From the IMG/VR virus record IMGVR_UViG_2609459847_000005: 26,651 bases of DNA; one strand, given 5' to 3'. A model generated the notes under the pieces. The model did no database searches. It saw nothing but the letters and a program-made list of their open reading frames with translations, and was not told the origin of the DNA. Positions 7,658 to 26,651 of this stretch are shown here, piece by piece; the stretch's first letter is position 1, and every line of letters starts with the position of its first letter. Source of the stretch: a virus. Its lineage: Duplodnaviria > Heunggongvirae > Uroviricota > Caudoviricetes. Made by a program: the position numbers and the translations under genes.

Positions 7658-8716
7658 TTACGCTCCGGTTTCTGCTGCGGCGGCGCTGAAGTCGCCAATC
7701 TGGATGTTTTCCACCAGTGCGGCGCAGCGGTAGTCCTCAACCACATAGGCTTCGTTAACGGATTCAAAATTTTCAATCCGGTCACGTTTCGGGTTGTCGA
7801 TAACCGAACGGCGGCGGGTGTCTTCCTGCCAGTAAATGGACAGGTTATCCAGACGGGTGATCAGCAGCGCATTCGGCGGGAAGAACGGCGCACGCACGGC
7901 CTGCAGGCCACCCATGCGTTTCTGACTGATGATCATATCGGCAGCCAGTTTTTCACTGTTTTCCTGCTCTTTGTTGACCAGCGGGAAATACTTGTCAGAC
8001 AGCAGCTCACGACCGCAAATCACCACCAGATCGTCATCGTCCTGGTAGACCACGTCGATAAGCTCATTGACCGCATCCATCACCACGGCGTCCAGGTTGG
8101 CATATTCGCCACCTTTCCCGACTTTCACCGCACCCGGTGTGGTTTCACCGCCCGTGGTGGTGCTGCCCATGACGTGATCCGGTGCATCCTCACGGATTTT
8201 CTGCAGCCAGCCTTTGTTCACATCCTGCAGCAGCGGGTTTTCGCTACGGTTGGAGGTTTTCGCACGCTTCACGCCGTTAAAGCCGATCATGATGCGGTCC
8301 AGTGCCTGGCGTTTCACGATGGCGTCACGGATACGCACCTGGAAATCCTGAAACTTCGCCCACAGGTCCAGCTTCGCGTAGGTCAGCACCGTGTCAAAGT
8401 TGGTCTGTTCGCATTTGTATTCCACATCGATCATCAGCGTCGGATCGACAGGTTCACGCTCTTTCGCGGTGGTGTCAGTGGTTCCGGCAATGGTGCTGCC
8501 AACACCCAATCCAAGCAGCTGACCGGACTGCTCAGTCACTGGCGTGACGTTAATCAGCGTCAGGAAAGCGGCGGACTGCTGGATCTGGTCTTCCAGCGTC
8601 TGCTGCACAGACGGCTCTACGGTGAACTTGCTGGACAGTTCCTCAACTGCCACACCGTTCAGACGCGCCAGTTGCTGCAGGTAAGCGTTAAAAGCAAAAC
8701 GGGTATTCTTCTTCAT
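7658..8716 (-). CDS. N: Major capsid protein (P2 gpN-like)
   Basis: 352-aa ORF (P2 N about 357 aa); GGAG Shine-Dalgarno before ATG 8716; follows scaffold gene O. Confidence 0.9.
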   Translation of the reverse strand: MKKNTRFAFNAYLQQLARLNGVAVEELSSKFTVEPSVQQTLEDQIQQSAAFLTLINVTPVTEQSGQLLGLGVGSTIAGTTDTTAKEREPVDPTLMIDVEYKCEQTNFDTVLTYAKLDLWAKFQDFQVRIRDAIVKRQALDRIMIGFNGVKRAKTSNRSENPLLQDVNKGWLQKIREDAPDHVMGSTTTGGETTPGAVKVGKGGEYANLDAVVMDAVNELIDVVYQDDDDLVVICGRELLSDKYFPLVNKEQENSEKLAADMIISQKRMGGLQAVRAPFFPPNALLITRLDNLSIYWQEDTRRRSVIDNPKRDRIENFESVNEAYVVEDYRCAALVENIQIGDFSAAAAETGA

Positions 8717-8732
8717 TGGGTTTTATGCTCCA

Positions 8733-9566
8733 TCAGCAATTGGTCAGAGTGTCAGCGGGGGCGTTGCCGCCTGTTGCACGCTGGCGGTAGTCCTGGCGGC
8801 TGTCTTCATGACTCAGCTTATCCACCAGTTCGTTAAAGGCGGTTTGCTGCTCCTGCAGAGCAGTCTCCAGCTCAGACAGGCGTTCTTCCTGCTCAGACAG
8901 GGATTTTTCGGTGCGCGTGCTCAGGTTCTGCTGCTCAGTGGCGACCAGTTCCACGGCCTTATGCACATCAGAGAACCGGACGTCATCGGACTGCTCTTTT
9001 TTGGTAAACAGCGCCGTGACGCGGGCAAACAGGGACGGCTTGTCCTCCTGGATTTCTTCCAGTTCGATCACCGTTTCCTCTGCAGCGGTAAAAAGATTGG
9101 CAGGATTCTGCTTGCGGTTTGCCAGCGGGTTATGGGCTGCACTGGCGCTGAATGTCAGCATTTCCGTACCCAGACTGGCGGGATCATCAGTGGCAGCCAG
9201 GCCGACCAGGTAGGCTTTGCCCGTATCAGCAAACTTCGGGCTGACTTCCATAGAGGTGAATAATTTCTGGCCTTTTTTCACCAGTTCCACCAGGGACTCC
9301 GTTGGCTCAACGTCGGCATACAGTGCCATCTTGCCTGCCAGCGGACCTTCCGCGATTTCTTCAGCAAACAGCGCCGTCACCTTGCCGTAGCGGTTAAACG
9401 TGCTGTCCGGCAGATAAGACTTAATGTGCTCAAGGTTAATCAGCGCGGTATACACCGCCGGGTTGTAGCTGGCTGCCATCTGTTCCAGCCATTCACGCTG
9501 GATTTCGCGTCCGTCGGTAGTGGCACCTTCCACCCCGATGCGAAAACGCTTTGCTTTCACTGTCAT
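8733..9566 (-). CDS. O: Capsid scaffolding protein (P2 gpO-like)
   Basis: 277-aa ORF (P2 O 284 aa), divergent from P; acidic coiled-coil-rich C-terminal half typical of scaffolds. Confidence 0.85.
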   Translation of the reverse strand: MTVKAKRFRIGVEGATTDGREIQREWLEQMAASYNPAVYTALINLEHIKSYLPDSTFNRYGKVTALFAEEIAEGPLAGKMALYADVEPTESLVELVKKGQKLFTSMEVSPKFADTGKAYLVGLAATDDPASLGTEMLTFSASAAHNPLANRKQNPANLFTAAEETVIELEEIQEDKPSLFARVTALFTKKEQSDDVRFSDVHKAVELVATEQQNLSTRTEKSLSEQEERLSELETALQEQQTAFNELVDKLSHEDSRQDYRQRATGGNAPADTLTNC

Positions 9567-9644
9567 GAGCCGTGCTCCGTTAGAAAAAACTTACTGGAGC
9601 CTTATGGTTGCGGTGATGGGGGCAGTGAAACAATGCGCGGTATT

Positions 9645-9662
9645 TGTACCGACAACCACACA
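9645..9662. promoter_or_regulatory. TGT-N12-ACA dyad in the O/P divergent late-promoter region
   Basis: TGTaccgacaaccacACA at 9645..9662, about 85 bp upstream of the O start, spacing compatible with an Ogr/B-type activator site for P_O. Confidence 0.4.
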
Positions 9663-9708
9663 AACCGCAGGCGGGGAAAGCCTTCATTCAAGGCTGTAGG
9701 TTTGTGCC

Positions 9709-11475
9709 ATGAACACCACACTGACACCCGCAGATCTCGATCCCCGTCGGCAGGCCATGCTGCTGTACTTTCAGGGATACCGCGTAGCCCGCATTGCTGA
9801 AATGCTGGGCGAGAAAGTTGCAACCGTTCACAGCTGGAAAAAACGCGACAAGTGGGGTGACTATGGGCCGCTGGATCAGATGCAGCTCACCACCGCCGCC
9901 CGCTACTGCCAGCTCATTATGAAGGAGCACAAAGAAGGGAAAGATTTCAAAGAAATTGACCTGCTGGCGCGCCAGTCGGAGCGCCACGCGCGGATCGGCA
10001 AGTTTAACAATGGCGGCAACGAAGCCGACTTAAACCCTAACGTCGCCAACCGCAACAAAGGGCCGCGCCGTCAGCCGGAAAAGAATGTTTTCACCGATGA
10101 ACAGATTGAGAAGCTGGAAGAAATCTTCCATTCCTCCATGTTCAACTACCAGCGCCACTGGTGGGAAGCCGGAAAAACCAATCGCATCCGCAACCTGCTG
10201 AAGTCTCGCCAGATCGGCGCGACCTTTTACTTTGCCCGTGAAGCCCTGATTGACGCCCTGCTGACCGGACGTAACCAGATTTTCCTTTCCGCCAGTAAGG
10301 CACAGGCCCACGTCTTTAAGCAGTACATCATCGACTTCGCCAAAGAAGTGGATGTGGAACTGAAAGGCGATCCGATGGTGCTTCCTAACGGGGCCACGCT
10401 TTACTTCCTCGGCACCAATGCCCGCACGGCCCAGAGTTACCACGGCAACCTGTATCTGGATGAATATTTCTGGATACCGAAATTCCAGGAGCTGCGCAAA
10501 GTGGCTTCCGGTATGGCTATTCACAAAAAATGGCGACAAACCTATTTTTCCACGCCATCCAGCCTGACACACAGTGCTTATCCGTTCTGGTCCGGTGCGC
10601 TGTTCAACCGAGGGCGCAACAAAGCCGATAAGGTGGACATCGACCTGTCCCACAGCAATCTGGCCCCCGGCCTGCTGTGCGCAGACGGGCAGTACCGCCA
10701 GATAGTCACCGTGGAAGATGCGGTGCGCGGCGGCTGTAACCTGTTCGACCTTGACCAGTTGCGCATGGAGTACAGCCCGGACGAATACCAGAACCTGCTG
10801 ATGTGCGAGTTCGTGGACGATCTCGCGTCCGTGTTCCCGCTCAGCGAGCTGCAGGCGTGCATGGTGGACAGTTGGGAAGTCTGGACCGACTTTCATGCAC
10901 TGGCCCTGCGCCCGTTTGGCTGGCGCGAAGTGTGGATCGGATATGACCCGGCGAAAGGTACGCAGAACGGCGACAGCGCCGGATGCGTGGTGGTGGCGCC
11001 GCCAGCCGTGCCGGGCGGTAAGTTCCGCATTCTTGAGCGTCACCAGTGGCGCGGAATGGACTTCCGCGCCCAGGCTGACGCCATCAAAAAACTGACCGAA
11101 CAGTACAACGTGACCTATATCGGTATCGACTCAACCGGCGTTGGTCACGGGGTTTACGAGAACGTGAAAGCGTTTTTTCCTGCCGTCCGGGAGTTTGTCT
11201 ACAACCCCAACGTTAAAAACGCCCTGGTACTCAAGGCCTACGACATTATCAGCCACCGCCGTCTGGAGTTTGACGCCGGACACACCGACATAGCGCAGTC
11301 CTTTATGGCAATCCGTCGCGCCACCACCGCCAGTGGCAACCGCCCGACCTATGAAGCCAGCCGCAGCGAAGAAGCCAGCCACGCCGATCTGGCCTGGGCA
11401 ACGATGCACGCACTGTTTAACGAACCGCTGCAGGGCGAATCCGCCAATACCAGCAATATTGTGGAGATTTTTTGA
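9709..11475 (+). CDS. P: Terminase large (ATPase) subunit (P2 gpP-like)
   Basis: 588-aa ORF (P2 P 590 aa); divergent from O; stop overlaps the Q start. Confidence 0.9.
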   Translation: MNTTLTPADLDPRRQAMLLYFQGYRVARIAEMLGEKVATVHSWKKRDKWGDYGPLDQMQLTTAARYCQLIMKEHKEGKDFKEIDLLARQSERHARIGKFNNGGNEADLNPNVANRNKGPRRQPEKNVFTDEQIEKLEEIFHSSMFNYQRHWWEAGKTNRIRNLLKSRQIGATFYFAREALIDALLTGRNQIFLSASKAQAHVFKQYIIDFAKEVDVELKGDPMVLPNGATLYFLGTNARTAQSYHGNLYLDEYFWIPKFQELRKVASGMAIHKKWRQTYFSTPSSLTHSAYPFWSGALFNRGRNKADKVDIDLSHSNLAPGLLCADGQYRQIVTVEDAVRGGCNLFDLDQLRMEYSPDEYQNLLMCEFVDDLASVFPLSELQACMVDSWEVWTDFHALALRPFGWREVWIGYDPAKGTQNGDSAGCVVVAPPAVPGGKFRILERHQWRGMDFRAQADAIKKLTEQYNVTYIGIDSTGVGHGVYENVKAFFPAVREFVYNPNVKNALVLKAYDIISHRRLEFDAGHTDIAQSFMAIRRATTASGNRPTYEASRSEEASHADLAWATMHALFNEPLQGESANTSNIVEIF

Positions 11476-12509
11476 TGGGAAAGAGTAAGAAGAACCGCGC
11501 TGCGGCGACGAAACAGATCCAGCTTAAAAGTCAAACTACAGCCGAAGCATTCAGCTTCGGCGATCCCGTTCCTGTTCTGGACCGCCGAGAACTGCTGGAT
11601 TATGTGGAATGCGTACAGATGGACCGCTGGTATGAGCCGCCCGTCAGCTTTGACGGACTGGCGCGCACCTTCCGCGCTGCCGTGCATCATAGTTCCCCGA
11701 TTGCAGTAAAGTGCAACATTCTGACCAGCACCTACATCCCTCACCCGCTGCTCAGCCAGCAGGCTTTTTCGCGTTTTGTGCAGGACTATCTGGTTTTTGG
11801 TAACGCCTACCTGGAGAAACGCACGAACCGCTTCGGTGAAGTTATCGCCCTTGAGCCTGCACTGGCAAAATACACCCGACGCGGGTTAGACCTGGATACC
11901 TACTGGTTTGTGCAATACGGTATGACAACCCAGCCGTATCAGTTCACGAAAGGCAGCATTTTTCATCTGATGGAACCGGATATTAATCAGGAGATCTACG
12001 GCCTGCCCGGTTATCTTTCTGCCATTCCGTCAGCCCTGCTCAACGAGTCCGCCACGCTGTTCCGTCGCAAGTATTACATTAACGGCAGTCATGCGGGCTT
12101 TATCATGTACATGACCGATGCCGCGCAAAACCAGGAGGATGTGAACAACCTCCGCAATGCGATGAAAAGCGCCAAAGGTCCAGGCAACTTCCGCAACCTG
12201 TTTATGTACTCGCCTAACGGCAAAAAAGACGGGCTTCAGATCATCCCATTGTCAGAAGTCGCGGCGAAGGATGAGTTTTTGAATATCAAAAATGTCAGCC
12301 GCGACGACATGATGGCTGCGCACCGCGTGCCGCCGCAAATGATGGGGATTATGCCTAATAATGTTGGAGGGTTTGGGGATGTGGAGAAGGCTAGTCGCGT
12401 ATTTGTACGTAATGAATTAACGCCCTTGCAAAAAAGGCTACAAGAGCTGAACGACTGGCTGGGCGAAGAAGTGATTAAATTTACGCCCTATATTCTTTCA
12501 GAAGAATAA
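11475..12509 (+). CDS. Q: Portal protein (P2 gpQ-like)
   Basis: ORF 11472..12509; first track codon is TTG, second is ATG at 11475, overlapping the P stop (TGATG); 344 aa, matching P2 Q. Confidence 0.9.
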   Translation: MGKSKKNRAAATKQIQLKSQTTAEAFSFGDPVPVLDRRELLDYVECVQMDRWYEPPVSFDGLARTFRAAVHHSSPIAVKCNILTSTYIPHPLLSQQAFSRFVQDYLVFGNAYLEKRTNRFGEVIALEPALAKYTRRGLDLDTYWFVQYGMTTQPYQFTKGSIFHLMEPDINQEIYGLPGYLSAIPSALLNESATLFRRKYYINGSHAGFIMYMTDAAQNQEDVNNLRNAMKSAKGPGNFRNLFMYSPNGKKDGLQIIPLSEVAAKDEFLNIKNVSRDDMMAAHRVPPQMMGIMPNNVGGFGDVEKASRVFVRNELTPLQKRLQELNDWLGEEVIKFTPYILSEE

Positions 12510-12517
12510 TTCCGAAC

Positions 12518-13216
12518 TTATTTGTTTCTTCTTTGTTCACGCCTTGTCTTGGCTTCGATAAGGCGTTGAGGTTCAGTGTAAAGCCGTTCTAAAAAAAGAT
12601 AGGTAAAATCTTCAAGATCCTCAGCAGCAGCTTTATCCAAAATACCTTCATGCGCTCCATCATTTCCGTCATCTTTAACGCATTCAGCTAGTTCCCTTAA
12701 AGCTTCAGGCAGTAGATGATTATCAAATAACCACTCCATTCTTAACCCTAGGCTTCTCCTTATTTTTTGCGCAGGCCCTTGCTCCCCATCAGGAAGAAGT
12801 CCTTTTGTGGCATAATCAAGGCAAAGCCTAAACATGGTTGCTGCTGCATTATAACAACCTATAGCCAAACATTTCGCCCCTTCCTCATATGCACTATTGA
12901 TATGCTCAGGTAAGAACTCTGGTGGCTCCTCTACTGCTAAGTCTGCCGGTGATATAGGCCTAACAACCTCTGCAACTTCCTTTAAGCCGAATATTCCACT
13001 TTCCCAATTATAGCCATCTAAAGTTTTATTTTTCGTTAAAGGTCTGCAAAGAAACATTGTCGTTTTATGACACTCTCGGCAAACACAATAGACCTCGTAC
13101 TCGTATGTTTTACCCCCGCCCAATGCATTGTAAACCCTAGTGCAATTCAGCCCATTAACATCAAACGCTATTTTTTGTGATCCACATCGTGGACAGTCAT
13201 CCACTAACATAACCAT
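12518..13216 (-). CDS. Hypothetical protein (232 aa): N-terminal zinc ribbon plus C-terminal alpha-helical domain (HEPN/DUF4145-like?)
   Basis: Strong GGGAGGAG Shine-Dalgarno before ATG 13216. N-terminus has CPRCGS...C..CVCRECH (Cys4-type ribbon); C-terminal region has GNDGAH (an NxxxH motif) in a predicted helical domain. AT-rich; sits between the Q 3' end and the putative cos site. Confidence 0.75.
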   Translation of the reverse strand: MVMLVDDCPRCGSQKIAFDVNGLNCTRVYNALGGGKTYEYEVYCVCRECHKTTMFLCRPLTKNKTLDGYNWESGIFGLKEVAEVVRPISPADLAVEEPPEFLPEHINSAYEEGAKCLAIGCYNAAATMFRLCLDYATKGLLPDGEQGPAQKIRRSLGLRMEWLFDNHLLPEALRELAECVKDDGNDGAHEGILDKAAAEDLEDFTYLFLERLYTEPQRLIEAKTRREQRRNK

Positions 13217-13505: not shown

Positions 13506-14117
13506 CTACGTAACCACAGTTAATGTGTGCATCCTGTCTCGAATTGCATCACACGTCTCATCAAAAAGCTTGGTGATGGTTGTACGGTTCAACTCTGCCT
13601 CTTTCCAATAATTTTGCCAGTCAAATTCTGGATCGCCATGCTGAAACGATATTGACTCTGAAAGGCATTCCTTCCGGAAACGGTCCAAGATTATATAAAC
13701 CTCTGGTGAGATGAACGGTTTGTTAGACTCAACACTTGTAACAAAAGTATTAAATGCATCGAAAAAAACTTTCAACCTTCTAAATTTTCTCTCTTCAAAT
13801 GGTTCGTTGGGGTCAAAATGATCCAGCGCAGGCCTCAGCTTAAGCACGCTTTCTCTGGTTTCAAACATCGAATTCCAAATGAGACTATATGCTGATAACT
13901 CCTTATCAAAATACGCTTTCGTTACATAAACAGAATTGTCTAACTTAGCCTTTATTCTTTCATTAGTTGCACTCAGTTGTGATTGAAATTCAGCAATATC
14001 TTTGTTTAGCCGCGACTTATATCTTTCTAAATAAACTTTCCCGATCCAAACAAATATGCCAGATGCAACAAAAGACACCCCACCCAACGAAGCCAGAATT
14101 TTAAAGACTAAATCCAT
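13506..14117 (-). CDS. Hypothetical membrane-anchored protein (203 aa)
   Basis: ATG 14117 preceded by AGGTGGGGG; N-terminal TM helix (ILASLGGVSFVASGIFVWIGKVY) followed by a charged, helix-rich soluble domain; AT-rich; no recognisable domain. Confidence 0.75.
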   Translation of the reverse strand: MDLVFKILASLGGVSFVASGIFVWIGKVYLERYKSRLNKDIAEFQSQLSATNERIKAKLDNSVYVTKAYFDKELSAYSLIWNSMFETRESVLKLRPALDHFDPNEPFEERKFRRLKVFFDAFNTFVTSVESNKPFISPEVYIILDRFRKECLSESISFQHGDPEFDWQNYWKEAELNRTTITKLFDETCDAIRDRMHTLTVVT

Positions 14118-20928: not shown

Positions 20929-21945
20929 ATGACCATCAGAAAACAGCCGAACGGAAAATGGTTGTGTGAGTGCTATCCCAATGGACGCAATGGTAAGCGC
21001 GTGCGTAAGCAATTTGCTACGAAAGGCGAAGCCATTGCTTTTGAAAGCTTCACAATGGAAGAAGTGAATAAAAAACCGTGGTTGGGTGAAAAGGATGATC
21101 GGCGACGCCTATCAGAATTAATTGAGCTTTGGTATTCCCTGTATGGTCAGACACTCGCAGACCCCAAGCGCCTCATGGCGAAACTTAGAATTATCTGTAA
21201 TGGTCTAGGCGACCCCATCGCCTCAGAACTGACAGCCGGTGACTTTACGAAATACCGCGAAGCACGGTTAAAAGGTGACGTTCGTAACGAAGACGGCACA
21301 CTAATGTCGCCAGTAAAACCACGCACGGTGAATCTTGAGCAACGTAACCTATCATCGGTTTTCGGCACATTGAAAAAACTAGGCCACTGGTCAGCACCAA
21401 ATCCTCTCGCCGGGCTGCCAACATTTAAAATCGCTGAGGGGGAACTGGCGTTCCTGACCTCGGAAGAAATTAAACGTCTGCTAGATGCCTGCGCTGATTC
21501 TCAAAACCCCAGTCTGCTTTTGATTGCAAAAATATGCCTGGCCACCGGCGCACGCTGGAGTGAAGCTGAAAACCTGCAGGGCCATCAGTTATCTAAATAC
21601 CGCATCACTTATACCAAGACGAAGGGTAAGAAAAACCGCACCGTGCCGATATCTCAAGATCTGTATGACGAACTCCCCAAGAACAGAGGGAAGCTATTCA
21701 CCCCGTGCAGAAAAGCCTTTGAACGAGCAGTAAAGCGAGCTGGCATCGAGCTGCCAGAGGGCCAATGCACTCACGTGCTACGTCATACATTCGCCAGCCA
21801 TTTTATGATGAATGGCGGAAACATACTGGTGCTGCGCGATATTCTGGGCCATGCCGATATAAAAATGACGATGATTTACGCCCACTTTTCGCCCGATCAC
21901 CTTGAAGATGCGGTAACTAAAAACCCTTTATGCAACTTAAGATAG
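20929..21945 (+). CDS. int: Tyrosine integrase (P2/186 Int family)
   Basis: 338-aa ORF; C-terminal catalytic region with R...HVLRHTFASHFMMNGG...LGHADIKMTMIYAH (RHR-Y tyrosine-recombinase signature); immediately follows cI. Confidence 0.9.
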   Translation: MTIRKQPNGKWLCECYPNGRNGKRVRKQFATKGEAIAFESFTMEEVNKKPWLGEKDDRRRLSELIELWYSLYGQTLADPKRLMAKLRIICNGLGDPIASELTAGDFTKYREARLKGDVRNEDGTLMSPVKPRTVNLEQRNLSSVFGTLKKLGHWSAPNPLAGLPTFKIAEGELAFLTSEEIKRLLDACADSQNPSLLLIAKICLATGARWSEAENLQGHQLSKYRITYTKTKGKKNRTVPISQDLYDELPKNRGKLFTPCRKAFERAVKRAGIELPEGQCTHVLRHTFASHFMMNGGNILVLRDILGHADIKMTMIYAHFSPDHLEDAVTKNPLCNLR

Positions 21946-22260
21946 AGTAACTTATGAAAACAAACTCAAACTATTTACAAATATAATATTCAGCAGGTTA
22001 TCCATTCTCATTTAACTCTTCAGACTGAGTTTAGGTTTTATTTATAGAATAAGATAATTTTTACATCACAAAAAAACCTATAAGCCCTCATCTTTGTTGT
22101 ATAAAAACATCAAAGATGCCACATTCAAAAATAGTAGAAAAGCATAGCATTGCAACATTAAAAAGAAACCAATAAAAAACAGTCATTAGAAAATGAAAAA
22201 AACAAAAACATTTTTTATCGAAGCTTCAGTCTGACTACTAGTTTGACTCTGCAATTAACT

Positions 22261-22294
22261 TTCAAGATGATCAATATTTATTGATCATCTTGAA
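22261..22294. repeat. 34-bp near-perfect inverted repeat with two GATC sites
   Basis: TTCAAGATGATCAATA-tt-TATTGATCATCTTGAA; lies about 30 nt beyond the 3' end of the deaminase gene in the AT-rich spacer between int and the deaminase. Confidence 0.6.
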
Positions 22295-22325
22295 GCTTAC
22301 CTCAGGAAGGATGAGTATAATATTT

Positions 22326-24059
22326 CTACTCAAGGAGATATTCTAACTCATCTTTTATCGGGATAATTTGCTCATAAAGTCGGTGATATGACTTCCCAAT
22401 TGCGCCTCTAAATTGTATTAACTTTGGTGGCTTACTACCTATATTAATAATATGGTCTTGAGCTATACCTGGGTAGGGATCAATAAATACAATTTCAGAT
22501 ATACCTAACTGATAAGCTTTTTTCGCACACAACTCACAGGGACTGGCAGTTGTATACAACTTCCCCCCCAGAACGCCAATACCACCATATTTTGCAAGTT
22601 GTAAAAATGCGTTTTCCTCAGCATGTAATGCACGTGTATGAACTTGATTACCTTTTTTCTCTTTATCAAGATCATTATGTATATCTTTAAAACAATAAGA
22701 TAAGTTCCTGCCTCTATAAATATCACCAGTTTTATCTATCGCCCTAAAATTTAAGAGTTTCTCATTAGCTTTAATTCTGAAAGAACTATTATTTCTCTCA
22801 TAATGACTGTACGTTTTTTCATCAAAATCGTTCATTAGGCCATCTAGAGATCTCATAGAGCAAGGAATCTGACCGTTGGCAACATCATTCCAACCAACTG
22901 ATTTTATTGAATTATCACCATCAGTTACTACAGCTCCCACCTGTCTAGATATACAGCCAGAGTTTAATTTTACCGTATACGCAACTTGCATAACCCTTTC
23001 CATTGCAGTAGGTGTTATCAGACCAGGATGCTTCATCAGTGCGATGTACCACGCTAATTGTGCTTTTAAAATATTGTCATTATCAAATTCATTTTTTGGG
23101 TTAAAAATGTGTATATCTGATAGTTCAATACATTTAGTTACATTTGGATTGGTGAGATGTTTGTAAGAGTTATCACCTTTACCTGACTCTACAGAATCTA
23201 TTTCCTCTATCTGCTTTTCTGAAAACTTATGTAGTTTCCGCAAATAGTTTGTTCGATGTTCATCTGGGGCATTTATTGACATTAAATGAAATGCAGAATA
23301 TCTATCCTTAAAAAATTTTGCCTCATATGGATTTCTAATAGCATCTATGACAATTAATGCGTTATCTCTTTTGCTTTTTCTTATTAATTTAATAACCCTA
23401 TTAATAGTTTCCGGCAAATGAAAAACAGATTTAGGCATAAACTCTTTATCTTCAAAATCGACTTCAATACGCCCACGACGTCTAATTGACTTACCTGCTA
23501 ACTGATAGGCTGAAACATATAAATTTGAGTTTATCTCATTTAGTTCAGCTTTGAATTCTTTAGTAAATTTTCTAACTAACTTCAAAATTGATATAAATTT
23601 ATTAATCGTTTTTTCATCAAACTTCAATTCACTATTATGATCAAGCAAATTCTCAATTACATTTTTAAATCTTGTCAAAATGAGATTATCTGAGAATACA
23701 CCAAAAGTTAATACAATATCTAAATGCTCTTTACTGATAAATTTATTAGATGATAGAATGAATTCAGAAGCTTCCTCAACTGTTAACATCAGAAGATACG
23801 CTGAGATTAGGTCACTCACCTTAATTGAGTAAAAATTTTCCCAGTGATTTTCTGCGAATTTTTTAACTATATTATAACGATGGACATCCAATCCCTTGTA
23901 AAACCCCTGTAATTTACTTACATCAGGGAAGACTGTTTTTTCGTTTTCAAGAATATTAGCTGTTGTTGTGCAACCAGAACCAGTTCGACCTGTCAAACCG
24001 ACTAAAATAAACTGCCCATTTTCAAGGAAAAGCTCACTAACGAATTTTTTTTCTTTCAT
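22326..24059 (-). CDS. P-loop NTPase / dCMP-dCTP deaminase fusion (AvcD/DCD-like nucleotide-depletion defence protein)
   Basis: 577 aa from ATG 24059 (track ORF starts at GTG 24062). N-terminal P-loop region with non-canonical Walker A (GLTGRTGSGCTT, no Lys) and Walker-B-like LIVID. C-terminal cytidine/dCMP deaminase signatures (RQVGAVV...GWN; HAEENA; PCELC zinc-binding motifs). Strongly AT-rich relative to the phage backbone. Confidence 0.8.
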   Translation of the reverse strand: MKEKKFVSELFLENGQFILVGLTGRTGSGCTTTANILENEKTVFPDVSKLQGFYKGLDVHRYNIVKKFAENHWENFYSIKVSDLISAYLLMLTVEEASEFILSSNKFISKEHLDIVLTFGVFSDNLILTRFKNVIENLLDHNSELKFDEKTINKFISILKLVRKFTKEFKAELNEINSNLYVSAYQLAGKSIRRRGRIEVDFEDKEFMPKSVFHLPETINRVIKLIRKSKRDNALIVIDAIRNPYEAKFFKDRYSAFHLMSINAPDEHRTNYLRKLHKFSEKQIEEIDSVESGKGDNSYKHLTNPNVTKCIELSDIHIFNPKNEFDNDNILKAQLAWYIALMKHPGLITPTAMERVMQVAYTVKLNSGCISRQVGAVVTDGDNSIKSVGWNDVANGQIPCSMRSLDGLMNDFDEKTYSHYERNNSSFRIKANEKLLNFRAIDKTGDIYRGRNLSYCFKDIHNDLDKEKKGNQVHTRALHAEENAFLQLAKYGGIGVLGGKLYTTASPCELCAKKAYQLGISEIVFIDPYPGIAQDHIINIGSKPPKLIQFRGAIGKSYHRLYEQIIPIKDELEYLLE

Positions 24060-24254
24060 CACGTCCCACTTATGAATGCAAGAACAATTAGCATATTAAT
24101 TATAATTTATTAACTAATTTTATTCTAGATGCTTGATGTAATGGCGGCACTTTGGCGGCAGAGCATTAAAAACGCGTAAGACGAGCAAATACAAAATAAC
24201 ACTAACACATTGTTTTCAAACATAATCTACTGTTTTTACTATAATAAAAATGGT

Positions 24255-24299
24255 ATGTAGGAATTTCGGACGCGGGTTCAACTCCCGCCAGCTCCACCA
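24255..24299 (+). other. ssrA: 3'-terminal fragment of tmRNA gene ssrA (attachment-site core copy)
   Basis: ATGTAGGAATTTCGGACGCGGGTTCAACTCCCGCCAGCTCCACCA matches the 3' acceptor/T-arm end of E. coli ssrA as recalled; upstream sequence is AT-rich and not ssrA-like, so only the core is present. Confidence 0.7.
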
Positions 24300-24334
24300 A
24301 TTTTTGATATATTGAAGTTCAGTGAAGTCTATCA

Positions 24335-24367
24335 AGCCCGCATGGAACCAGCCTTGCGGGCTTTTTT
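24335..24367 (+). terminator. Rho-independent terminator downstream of the ssrA 3' fragment
   Basis: AGCCCGCA-tggaaccagcct-TGCGGGCT followed by TTTTTT. Confidence 0.6.
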
Positions 24368-24465
24368 ACGTCTATAGTAGTCTACCGAGAATTGCTAGAA
24401 TCTACTCGTTATGGCACCCTTTTTGGGACCCAACACAAAGGGTCCAAAACATGAGGGTCCCAAAC

Positions 24466-25695
24466 ATGGCAAAAATCGCTAAGAAGCTCACTGACACTGA
24501 AATCAAAAGCACCAAACCTGCCGAGAAAGAGGTTAACCTTTTTGACGGCGATGGTTTGCTCCTGCGAATCGCCCCCTTAGCGAAGGGAGGAAAGAAAAAT
24601 TGGTATTTCAGATATGCAGTGCCTGTGACCAAAAAGCGAACTAAGGTGAGCTTAGGAACCTATCCTCACCTTACACTTGCGAAGGCACGAGCTTTACGTG
24701 ATGAGTACTTGTCGTTGCTTGCAAATGGTATAGACCCACAAGTTCATAACACCCACAAAGCCAATGCCCTTAAGGATGCAACGGAACATACATTTCAAGC
24801 AGTAGCCAAGAAGTGGCTTGATGAGAAAGTCAAAACGTCAGGCATCTCCCAGGATCATGCTAACGACATCTGGCGAAGCCTAGAGAGAAATATCTTTCCA
24901 ACGTTGGGTGATACCCCCATTAAGGAGATTCGCCCTAAAATGCTTAAACAGCATTTAGACCCCATAGAAAAACGAGGTGTCCTTGAAACACTTCGCCGCG
25001 TCATATCCCGCCTGAATGAAATTTTCCGCTATGCAGCAACAGAAGAACTCATAGAATTCAATCCGGCTGACAACCTGGGGCAACGGTTCAGCAAGCCAAA
25101 AAAACAGAATATGCCAGCATTACCCCCTTCCGAACTCCCCCGCTTCCTGGTTGCTCTAAACAATGCTTCTATCCGTTTAGAAACAAGGCTACTGATTGAG
25201 TGGCAACTTCTCACATGGGTTCGCCCTGGTGAAGCTGTTCGCACAAGATGGTCAGATATTGATATAGAAACCAGCATGTGGAACATCCCGGCGGAGTTTA
25301 TGAAAATGAAGAAGCCTCACAAAGTTCCACTGAGCAAAGAATCTTTGCGAGTCTTGGATTCAATGAAAGCCATCAGCGGGCATAGAGAGTGGGTTTTTCC
25401 CAGTATCAAAGCTCCACTCAATCACATGCATGAACAAACAGCTAATGCGGCTATAATCCGTATGGGCTTCGGAGGTGAGCTTGTAGCTCATGGTATGCGA
25501 TCAATCGCTAGAACGGCGGCTGAGGAGTGTGGCAAGTTTAGAACTGATGTCTTAGAAGCCGCCCTTGCCCACTCGAAAAAAGATGAAATAATTGCAGCCT
25601 ACAATCGTGCAGAGTATCTCACAGAACGTGTGGTTCTCATGCAATGGTGGAGTGACTATGTTTCGTCTCAAAAATACAAAGTTATTGCCGCATAA
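24466..25695 (+). CDS. intA: Tyrosine integrase, CP4-57 IntA / P4-family (ssrA-targeting type)
   Basis: ORF 24322..25695; start moved to internal ATG 24466 (MAKIAKKLTDTEIKSTKPAEKEVNLFDGDGLLLRI...) because the upstream part spans the terminator hairpin; N-terminal pattern typical of P4-family integrases (DUF4102-like); adjacency to the ssrA 3' end as in CP4-57. Confidence 0.8.
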   Translation: MAKIAKKLTDTEIKSTKPAEKEVNLFDGDGLLLRIAPLAKGGKKNWYFRYAVPVTKKRTKVSLGTYPHLTLAKARALRDEYLSLLANGIDPQVHNTHKANALKDATEHTFQAVAKKWLDEKVKTSGISQDHANDIWRSLERNIFPTLGDTPIKEIRPKMLKQHLDPIEKRGVLETLRRVISRLNEIFRYAATEELIEFNPADNLGQRFSKPKKQNMPALPPSELPRFLVALNNASIRLETRLLIEWQLLTWVRPGEAVRTRWSDIDIETSMWNIPAEFMKMKKPHKVPLSKESLRVLDSMKAISGHREWVFPSIKAPLNHMHEQTANAAIIRMGFGGELVAHGMRSIARTAAEECGKFRTDVLEAALAHSKKDEIIAAYNRAEYLTERVVLMQWWSDYVSSQKYKVIAA

Positions 25696-25977
25696 CTCTT
25701 CCATGATGGGTTAACTATCTTGATTTATTTGAAGAATTAATGATCACACCATTAACCTATGTGGACTAAGCATAGCCATTTACAAATGGGTACCTTGAGG
25801 CCACATAACGAAAGCTGTCGGTCATATCAGCTAAATAATTCACATCTCTTCTCGATTATCATACACCTCGAAGAACTACCAAATTCGCTCTAATCAATGA
25901 TAAAACAGTTGAATTCGGTTAAAATTTGATCAATTTTATCCTCTACATTGTATTGAATCATCCATGAGGTTTTGTGC

Positions 25978-26069
25978 ATGGCTAGCGGAAATGAAAAAAA
26001 TCATAGAGTTAGGGTCGCACAGTACTTGAGGATGTCTACCGACCATCAGCAATATTCTTTACATAATCA
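25978..26069 (+). pseudogene. 5' fragment of a serine-recombinase-like gene, interrupted by IS1
   Basis: ATG 25978 encodes MASGNEKNHRVRVAQYLRMSTDHQQYSLHNQ, containing the Y-x-R-x-S-T-x-x-Q catalytic-serine motif; the reading frame runs directly into the IS1 terminal inverted repeat at 26070. Confidence 0.4.
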
Positions 26070-26651
26070 GGTAATGACTCCAACTTATTGATAGTGTTTT
26101 ATGTTCAGATAATGCCCGATGACTTTGTCATGCAGCTCCACCGATTTTGAGAACGACAGCGACTTCCGTCCCAGCCGTGCCAGGTGCTGCCTCAGATTCA
26201 GGTTATGCCGCTCAATTCGCTGAGTGTAACGCTTGCTGATTACGTGCAGCTTTCCCTTCAGGCGGGATTCATACAGCGGCCAGCCATCCGTCATCCATAT
26301 CACCACGTCAAAGGGTGACAGCAGGCTCATAAGACGCCCCAGCGTCGCCATAGTGCGTTCACCGAATACGTGCGCAACAACCGTCTTCCGGAGCCTGTCA
26401 TACGCGTAAAACAGCCAGCGCTGGCGCGATTTAGCCCCGACGTATCCCCACTGTTCGTCCATTTCCGCGCAGACGATGACGTCACTGCCCGGCTGTATGC
26501 GCGAGGTTACCGACTGCGGCCTGAGTTTTTTAAATGGCGGAAAATCGTGTTGAGGCCAACGCCCATAATGCGGGCGGTTGCCCGGCATCCAACGCCATTC
26601 ATGGCCATATCAATGATTTTCTGGTGCGTACCGGGTTGAGAAGCGGTGTAA
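26070..26651 (-). mobile_element. IS1 insertion sequence (partial; continues beyond window end)
   Basis: Sequence from 26070 (GGTAATGACTCCAACTTATTGATAGTGTTTTATGTTCAGATAATGCCCGATGAC...) matches the IS1 right inverted repeat and body as recalled; contains insB. Confidence 0.9.
26085..26588 (-). CDS. insB: IS1 transposase InsB (C-terminal part of InsAB')
   Basis: 167-aa [53 protein letters not shown]... recognised as IS1 InsB. Confidence 0.9.

Follow-up and report, generated by a model that had tools for sequence, protein, structure and literature searches.

Where an insertion sequence cuts into a gene at the edge of a genomic island, it may mark a simple interruption, with the rest of the gene and island continuing on its other side, or the scar of a larger loss. 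This question is raised by positions 25,978 to 26,651 of a 26,651-nucleotide stretch of DNA (hereafter the window, meaning the whole stretch) from the IMG/VR virus record IMGVR_UViG_2609459847_000005 (Caudoviricetes), in which the opening codons of a recombinase gene run directly into an IS1 element that continues past the window's end.

Identity of the truncated gene

An ATG at position 25978 on the plus strand opens a frame that, read from the window sequence, translates as MASGNEKNHRVRVAQYLRMSTDHQQYSLHNQ. Positions 25978-26069 match, without a mismatch, the first 92 nt of a 1557-bp gene annotated as encoding a 'recombinase family protein' in E. coli strain 300709 (WP_000146253.1). The breakpoint is ambiguous by one base, since the G at 26070 can be read either as part of codon 31 (CAG) or as the start of the IS1 repeat, and the 5' stub of the gene (25978..26070, plus strand) is 92-93 nt long and comprises codons 1-31, including an RMSTDHQ motif with the putative catalytic Ser20. 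Beyond codon 31 the frame enters the IS1 repeat, which supplies VMTPTY and a stop codon (26089-26091), giving a 37-aa fusion ORF (25978..26091, plus strand) or, in the TTG-started version of the ORF list, one of 39 aa (25972-26091).

The gene that the stub once opened is common in E. coli. The 370 bp formed by the upstream region and the stub were found in 660 of 5426 complete E. coli genomes, where they open the 1557-bp gene; the full gene (at least 80% coverage) is present in 631 of the 5426 (e.g. REL606, strain C and 042), and in about 24 complete genomes it is truncated. The 518-aa product of the full-length homologue carries a Pfam Resolvase domain (PF00239, residues 14-152, E 7.6e-22) and a Recombinase domain (PF07508, residues 210-312, E 5.3e-22), the second of which is missing from the window through truncation. 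In the catalytic domain, S20 of RMSTDHQ lines up with the stretch RVSTxxQ that holds the catalytic serine in TP901-1 integrase and in PDB entry 3guv, and in the alignment of the 518-aa homologue the stub motif RVAQYLRMSTDHQ pairs with KVAIYTRVSTTNQ of TP901-1 integrase. The homologue also has significant matches to the solved catalytic domains of TP901-1 (3bvp), TnpX (2mhc) and 3guv, and matches YokA (9dxh) via its recombinase domain.

These matches place the protein among the large serine recombinases, such as TP901-1 integrase, CcrB/CcrC, TnpX and YokA of SPbeta, with which the intact homologue shares an N-terminal Resolvase catalytic domain followed by a Recombinase domain. It differs from them in its neighbours, a tyrosine integrase on one side and two ParB/RepB-like genes on the other, and all but 31 of its residues are lost in the window. 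For the zinc-ribbon/coiled-coil C-terminal domain of the class, the 518-aa homologue gave no Pfam zinc-ribbon match at E <= 0.01. Since it combines both domains and the catalytic-domain matches with scores far under every NCBIfam equivalog cut-off (64.5 bits for CcrB, against a threshold of 900), the protein is a large serine recombinase outside any named subfamily.

The stub keeps the catalytic-serine motif but has lost the larger part of the catalytic domain and everything downstream of it, the recombinase domain and C-terminal part of the protein included; no activity can therefore remain, and with 31 of 518 residues left the gene is certainly dead in the window. Pseudogene is the right label for it, as in AH21 and Z142-1, two E. 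coli strains whose RefSeq annotation already lists these 93 nt as a pseudogene, an incomplete 'recombinase family protein' gene beside an IS1B transposase. The IS1-truncated stub is thus already known, both in kind and in its exact instance, and is a case of ordinary IS-mediated gene decay. The preliminary description of this region had recognised the frame at 25978 as the N-terminus of a serine recombinase by its catalytic-serine motif, and this reading is borne out by the domains of the homologue and the alignment of RMSTDHQ; the position that it gave for the cut, at the IS1 terminal repeat starting at 26070, was exact, and the comparison with uninterrupted homologues that it proposed identified the stub as the beginning of the intact gene.

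The IS1 element

IS1 occupies positions 26070..26651, with its transposase genes on the minus strand. These are the first 582 bp of a 768-bp element whose rest lies past the window's end, and they are 100% identical to the complete 768-bp IS1 of AH21, the far end of which reads TTGGCAGCATCACC; the window stops 186 bp earlier. The right terminal inverted repeat, read from the sequence at 26070..26092, is GGTAATGACTCCAACTTATTGAT (beginning GGTAATGACTCC), and the left repeat of the AH21 copy, GGTGATGCTGCCAACTTACTGAT, matches it at 18 of 23 positions. Within the element, the insB frame (26085..26588, minus strand) is a 167-aa ORF recognised by the NCBIfam model transpos_IS1 (143.8 bits, above the cut-off of 100; E 6.4e-42). 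Of insA, which starts beyond the window, a 3' portion is present (26507..26651, minus strand; ORF at 26507-26608); it contains the A6C motif of the -1 frameshift at 26525-26534, which reads TTTAAAAAAC on the minus and GTTTTTTAAA on the plus strand. RefSeq describes the identical AH21 copy as 'IS1-like element IS1B family transposase' with 'programmed frameshift'.

Two hallmarks of the IS1 family are accordingly found here: imperfect terminal repeats of about 23 bp (GGTRATG...CCAACTTAYTGAT), the left one seen in the identical AH21 copy, and InsA and InsB frames linked by a -1 frameshift at an A6C motif. Members of the family are also about 768 bp long, as is the AH21 copy, and duplicate 8-9 bp of their target when they insert. 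The visible part, with its right repeat, insB, the 3' end of insA and the motif, corresponds to an IS1B-type element, from which it shows no difference over the visible 582 bp. IS1 transposed into codon 31 of the recombinase gene; its right inverted repeat faces the stub, and its transposase is encoded on the strand opposite to the recombinase. Of 5426 complete E. coli genomes, 4972 contain sequence matching IS1, at a median of 11 places per genome.

The island at ssrA

The recombinase belongs to an island whose left border lies within the window. A 45-nt copy of the 3' end of the tmRNA gene ssrA (24255..24299, plus strand), identical to the last 45 nt of ssrA in 300709 and AH21, forms an att repeat that divides a P2-like prophage on its left from the island on its right; ARAGORN finds no complete tmRNA gene in the window. 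The first island gene (24466..25695, plus strand) encodes a P4-type tyrosine integrase of 409 aa with the Pfam domains Arm-DNA-bind_3, Phage_int_M and Phage_integrase, and has the exact sequence of WP_001384082.1. It is followed by the intergenic region upstream of the recombinase gene (25696..25977, plus strand), which is conserved in the 660 complete E. coli genomes and which, together with the stub (25696-26069), has a GC content of 36%.

In all 10 contexts examined the gene order is the same, with the integrase followed by the serine recombinase and two ParB genes, and the recombinase therefore comes second in an island whose beginning, marked by the ssrA copy and the P4-type integrase, lies upstream; it does not belong to the separate downstream island that had first been proposed. 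To the right of the two ParB-like genes the cargo varies (RelA/SpoT-NACHT, type I restriction-modification and others) and is followed by a relaxase, ypjA, ypjC, ileY, ygaQ and glaH. In strain 300709 the layout is as follows: ssrA, a P2-like prophage, a dCTP deaminase, the integrase, the serine recombinase, two ParB genes, RelA/SpoT plus NACHT, the relaxase, ypjA, ileY and glaH. In the same strain (positions 9279-12614 of locus L001), the integrase, the large serine recombinase and the two overlapping ParB/RepB-like genes form a conserved set.

CP4-57 of E. coli K-12 is an example of an ssrA-integrated island or prophage with a P4-type integrase. The present island shares with such elements the site at the 3' end of ssrA, a P4-type integrase as first gene, and ypjA, ileY, ygaQ and glaH on the far side; it differs in its cargo, here the serine recombinase, two ParB genes, RelA/SpoT-NACHT and the relaxase, and in that no right-hand repeat of the ssrA end was recovered in 300709. 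From this architecture, integration and excision at ssrA would be expected to rely on the adjacent tyrosine integrase and not on the serine recombinase. Between the integrase and glaH of strain 300709 (loci L006/L007) there is no direct repeat of the ssrA 3' end of at least 11 nt; even the intact island may have no recognisable attR, and its mobility is for this reason in doubt.

Our search of the literature on the island and on its recombinase-ParB module returned nothing specific, including no experimental recombination data. PADLOC gave no match for the recombinase or for the first ParB-like protein, and for the second only a weak one (E 3.8e-06) to a Type II methyltransferase model, over the ParB-like N-terminus; the idea that the recombinase and ParB genes are a known defence system was rejected on these grounds.

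Genomes sharing the junction

The same left junction is found in only two complete E. coli genomes, AH21 and Z142-1, which come from Canada and China, were sequenced independently and both bear deletions. Over 24255-26651, junction included, the window is identical to AH21 at 2397 of 2397 positions (100%) and to Z142-1 at 2396 of 2397 (99.96%). Against a divergence of 1.3-4.4% for the other alleles of the region, the simplest view is that the junction is identical by descent in all three.

What lies beyond IS1 differs between the two strains. The far end of the element is fused to DNA inside ypjA in AH21 (flank CGGCTCCCGGAGGAT) and to ypjC in Z142-1 (flank CAGCTTCCTTACAAA). In the 300709 layout these points lie 23,537 bp and 26,930 bp farther along, corresponding to an island loss of about 23.5 kb and 26.9 kb, respectively. 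No remainder of the recombinase follows IS1 in either genome, and neither has a 9-bp duplication around the element, the left flank being ACATAATCA and the right flank CGGCTCCCG or CAGCTTCCT. Both joints thus show what is expected of an adjacent deletion, namely one flank unchanged, the other joined to distant DNA, and no duplication; the far IS1 flank of the window itself lies outside it.

Unlike AH21 and Z142-1, the window has a P2-like prophage between ssrA and the integrase and therefore represents a third lineage. Positions 21000-26651 occur at full identity in no complete E. coli genome, and neither the GTDB representative genomes nor the JGI metagenome contigs contain the 41-mer that spans the junction. 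Exact-protein look-ups with the integrase and the dCTP deaminase returned 20 contexts, none with the window's junction.

Insertion and a probable later deletion

We consider it probable that, in the window's genome, IS1 first inserted and most of the island was then lost in a deletion associated with it. The history began with the insertion into codon 31 of the serine recombinase gene. Later, this IS1 copy probably deleted the DNA to the right of its left end, through either abortive (or intramolecular) transposition or recombination between it and another IS1. Past the window, the neighbour of IS1 would then most likely be ypjA or ypjC near ileY instead of the remaining recombinase sequence, and the island would have lost its ParB genes, defence cargo and relaxase.

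Both routes have precedents. Adjacent deletion by IS1 in E. coli has been described under an abortive transposition model (PMC10569738), and deletions by recombination between two IS1 copies are likewise documented in E. coli (PMC4173774) and would leave the same scar. In common with such deletions, AH21 and Z142-1 have a single IS1 at a novel joint, no duplication, and a shared left junction with nested right junctions, a combination that is the pattern to be expected of deletions from a resident IS1. For the window itself the deletion is deduced from these two strains, and the sequence fits either mechanism equally well. In the lineage of the window, the island would be a decayed remnant.

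The main alternative is a simple IS1 insertion, in which the remainder of the recombinase would resume past IS1 after a 9-bp duplication of ACATAATCA and the rest of the island would be intact apart from the recombinase; the predicted flank beyond IS1 is ACATAATCAGTCTGAATATATC, that is, the ACATAATCA duplication followed by GTCTGAATATATCAAAG... (recombinase from nt 93). The ancestor of the AH21/Z142-1 junction must have been in this state, and the window's genome, as a third lineage with its P2-like prophage, could have kept it. Simple insertions with 9-bp duplications do exist elsewhere in the gene, in GENOMIC22-004 at nt 443 (CAGGAATCT) and in AR_0128 at nt 176 (CGGAGTCAG), but 12 of the 14 mapped strains with IS1 in the recombinase gene have deletions. 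Moreover, the predicted right junction (IS1 left repeat, ACATAATCA, recombinase from nt 93 on) is absent from 185,579 species-representative (GTDB) genomes. Because the only two complete E. coli genomes that share the left junction are both deletion-bearing, lacking the recombinase remainder as well as the 9-bp duplication, we regard a simple insertion as unlikely in the window's genome. The continuation of the gene and the target-site duplication that the preliminary description had proposed to look for at the far IS1 end are thus found neither at ypjA in AH21 nor at ypjC in Z142-1, and these joints favour insertion followed by IS1-associated deletion over an insertion that left the island in place and only immobilised it.

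Two further explanations would dispose of the junction as a biological event in a recombinase gene, and each has a negligible probability. The short ORF might be a chance frame, or belong to something other than a recombinase, with IS1 lying in intergenic DNA: the 37-aa fusion ORF alone has no match in a Pfam search, and an exact-protein look-up finds no called gene with this product on record. Its recombinase portion is nonetheless nucleotide-identical to the start of the 518-aa gene that is intact in 631 genomes and encodes both domains, and the pairing with TP901-1 integrase extends to the stub's own motif, observations that together refute this reading; chance is also excluded because the 370 bp of upstream region and stub recur in 660 complete E. 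coli genomes and IS1 matches in 4972 of 5426. The junction might instead have arisen in assembly through a chimeric join at one of several IS1 copies, since the element is multi-copy in these genomes and repeats are a classic source of misjoins, but the identical junction is present in two independently sequenced complete genomes from different countries.

Recurrent IS1 events in the recombinase gene

Complete E. coli genomes contain at least 13 distinct IS1 junctions in this gene, in both orientations. We mapped them in 14 strains on the 300709 layout, giving each position as the nucleotide of the gene after which IS1 starts. In the window's orientation, IS1 starts after nt 92 (AH21 and Z142-1), 167 (Z226-5), 169 (EC21Z-063), 280 (ATCC 8739), 443 (GENOMIC22-004), 507 (3PT) and 666 (E3); in the opposite orientation it starts after nt 70 (TUM9803), 113 (B771), 140 (PSJ-12), 156 (Ec-RL2-1X), 176 (AR_0128) and 1029 (PSJ-23). 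GENOMIC22-004 and AR_0128 are the only simple insertions with 9-bp duplications, and the other 12 strains have deletions of 1.8-31 kb, which in 10 strains besides AH21 and Z142-1 start elsewhere in the gene than the window's junction. Since the IS1 copies at the mapped junctions differ by up to 6%, the events are independent.

The joints are unevenly distributed at both ends. Nine of the 13 left junctions fall within nt 70-280 (if junctions were spread uniformly over about 1 kb, binomial p would be ~0.003), a concentration that is suggestive in strength because the selection of strains required the 5' end of the recombinase gene to be present. On the right, ypjA and a stretch 160-250 bp upstream of glaH together account for most of the endpoints of the deletions. 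A span of 92 bp upstream of glaH/csiD contains five right junctions (loci L004, L018, L032, L033 and L036), and B771 and EC21Z-063 have the identical right-junction nucleotide with IS1 in opposite orientations. It is conceivable, and we put this forward tentatively, that the first ~280 nt of the recombinase gene and a stretch of ~100 bp located 160-250 bp upstream of glaH/csiD act as paired IS1 hot spots, and that the ~31-kb island has been removed repeatedly and independently, with IS1 and not the island's own recombinases as the agent, and with the integrase and a recombinase stub remaining each time.

Two ideas about this pattern were discarded. An apparent bias in the orientation of IS1 within the gene proved to be an artefact of the first query: it vanished when a synthetic query carrying IS1 in reverse brought up another six strains. 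AT-richness does not account for the clustering in the first 280 nt either: in a gene with 32.5% GC overall, no part contains less AT than the first 200 nt (39-40% GC).

The wider junction pattern fits well-established, textbook behaviour of IS1, and the importance of the locus beyond annotation is small. With many independent IS1 events starting from the same two regions, it offers a tidy natural example of the IS-driven erosion of a genomic (defence) island.

Neighbouring prophage and related loci

The P2-like prophage to the left of the ssrA copy has a gpA replication protein, CI and an integrase. Between this integrase and the att copy, a cargo position of the prophage, lies a gene on the minus strand (22326-24059) for a 577-aa anti-phage dCTP deaminase (PADLOC dCTPase, E 1.9e-145). 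The 45-nt ssrA copy that separates the prophage from the island integrase indicates that elements sit in tandem at the ssrA attachment site, and in other strains the same slot holds P4-like satellites or lambdoid prophages.

Two further genes on the minus strand, at 12518-13216 and 13506-14117, encode a DUF4145 protein (232 aa) and an unannotated protein of 203 aa. They are flanked by the P2-like portal gene and by the DinI/gpA region, a spot where the genes of other P2-like prophages differ (GAPS4-type PDDEXK, TIR and PIN_12 are examples) and which may be a variable slot for cargo or defence genes.

The island has also been lost by a route that does not involve IS1. In E. coli NCTC9038 (LR134082.1; positions 7704-9594 of locus L024), a truncated copy of the island's tyrosine integrase is linked directly to ypjA by an IS3-family element, an IS-linked loss of the same island that is independent of IS1.
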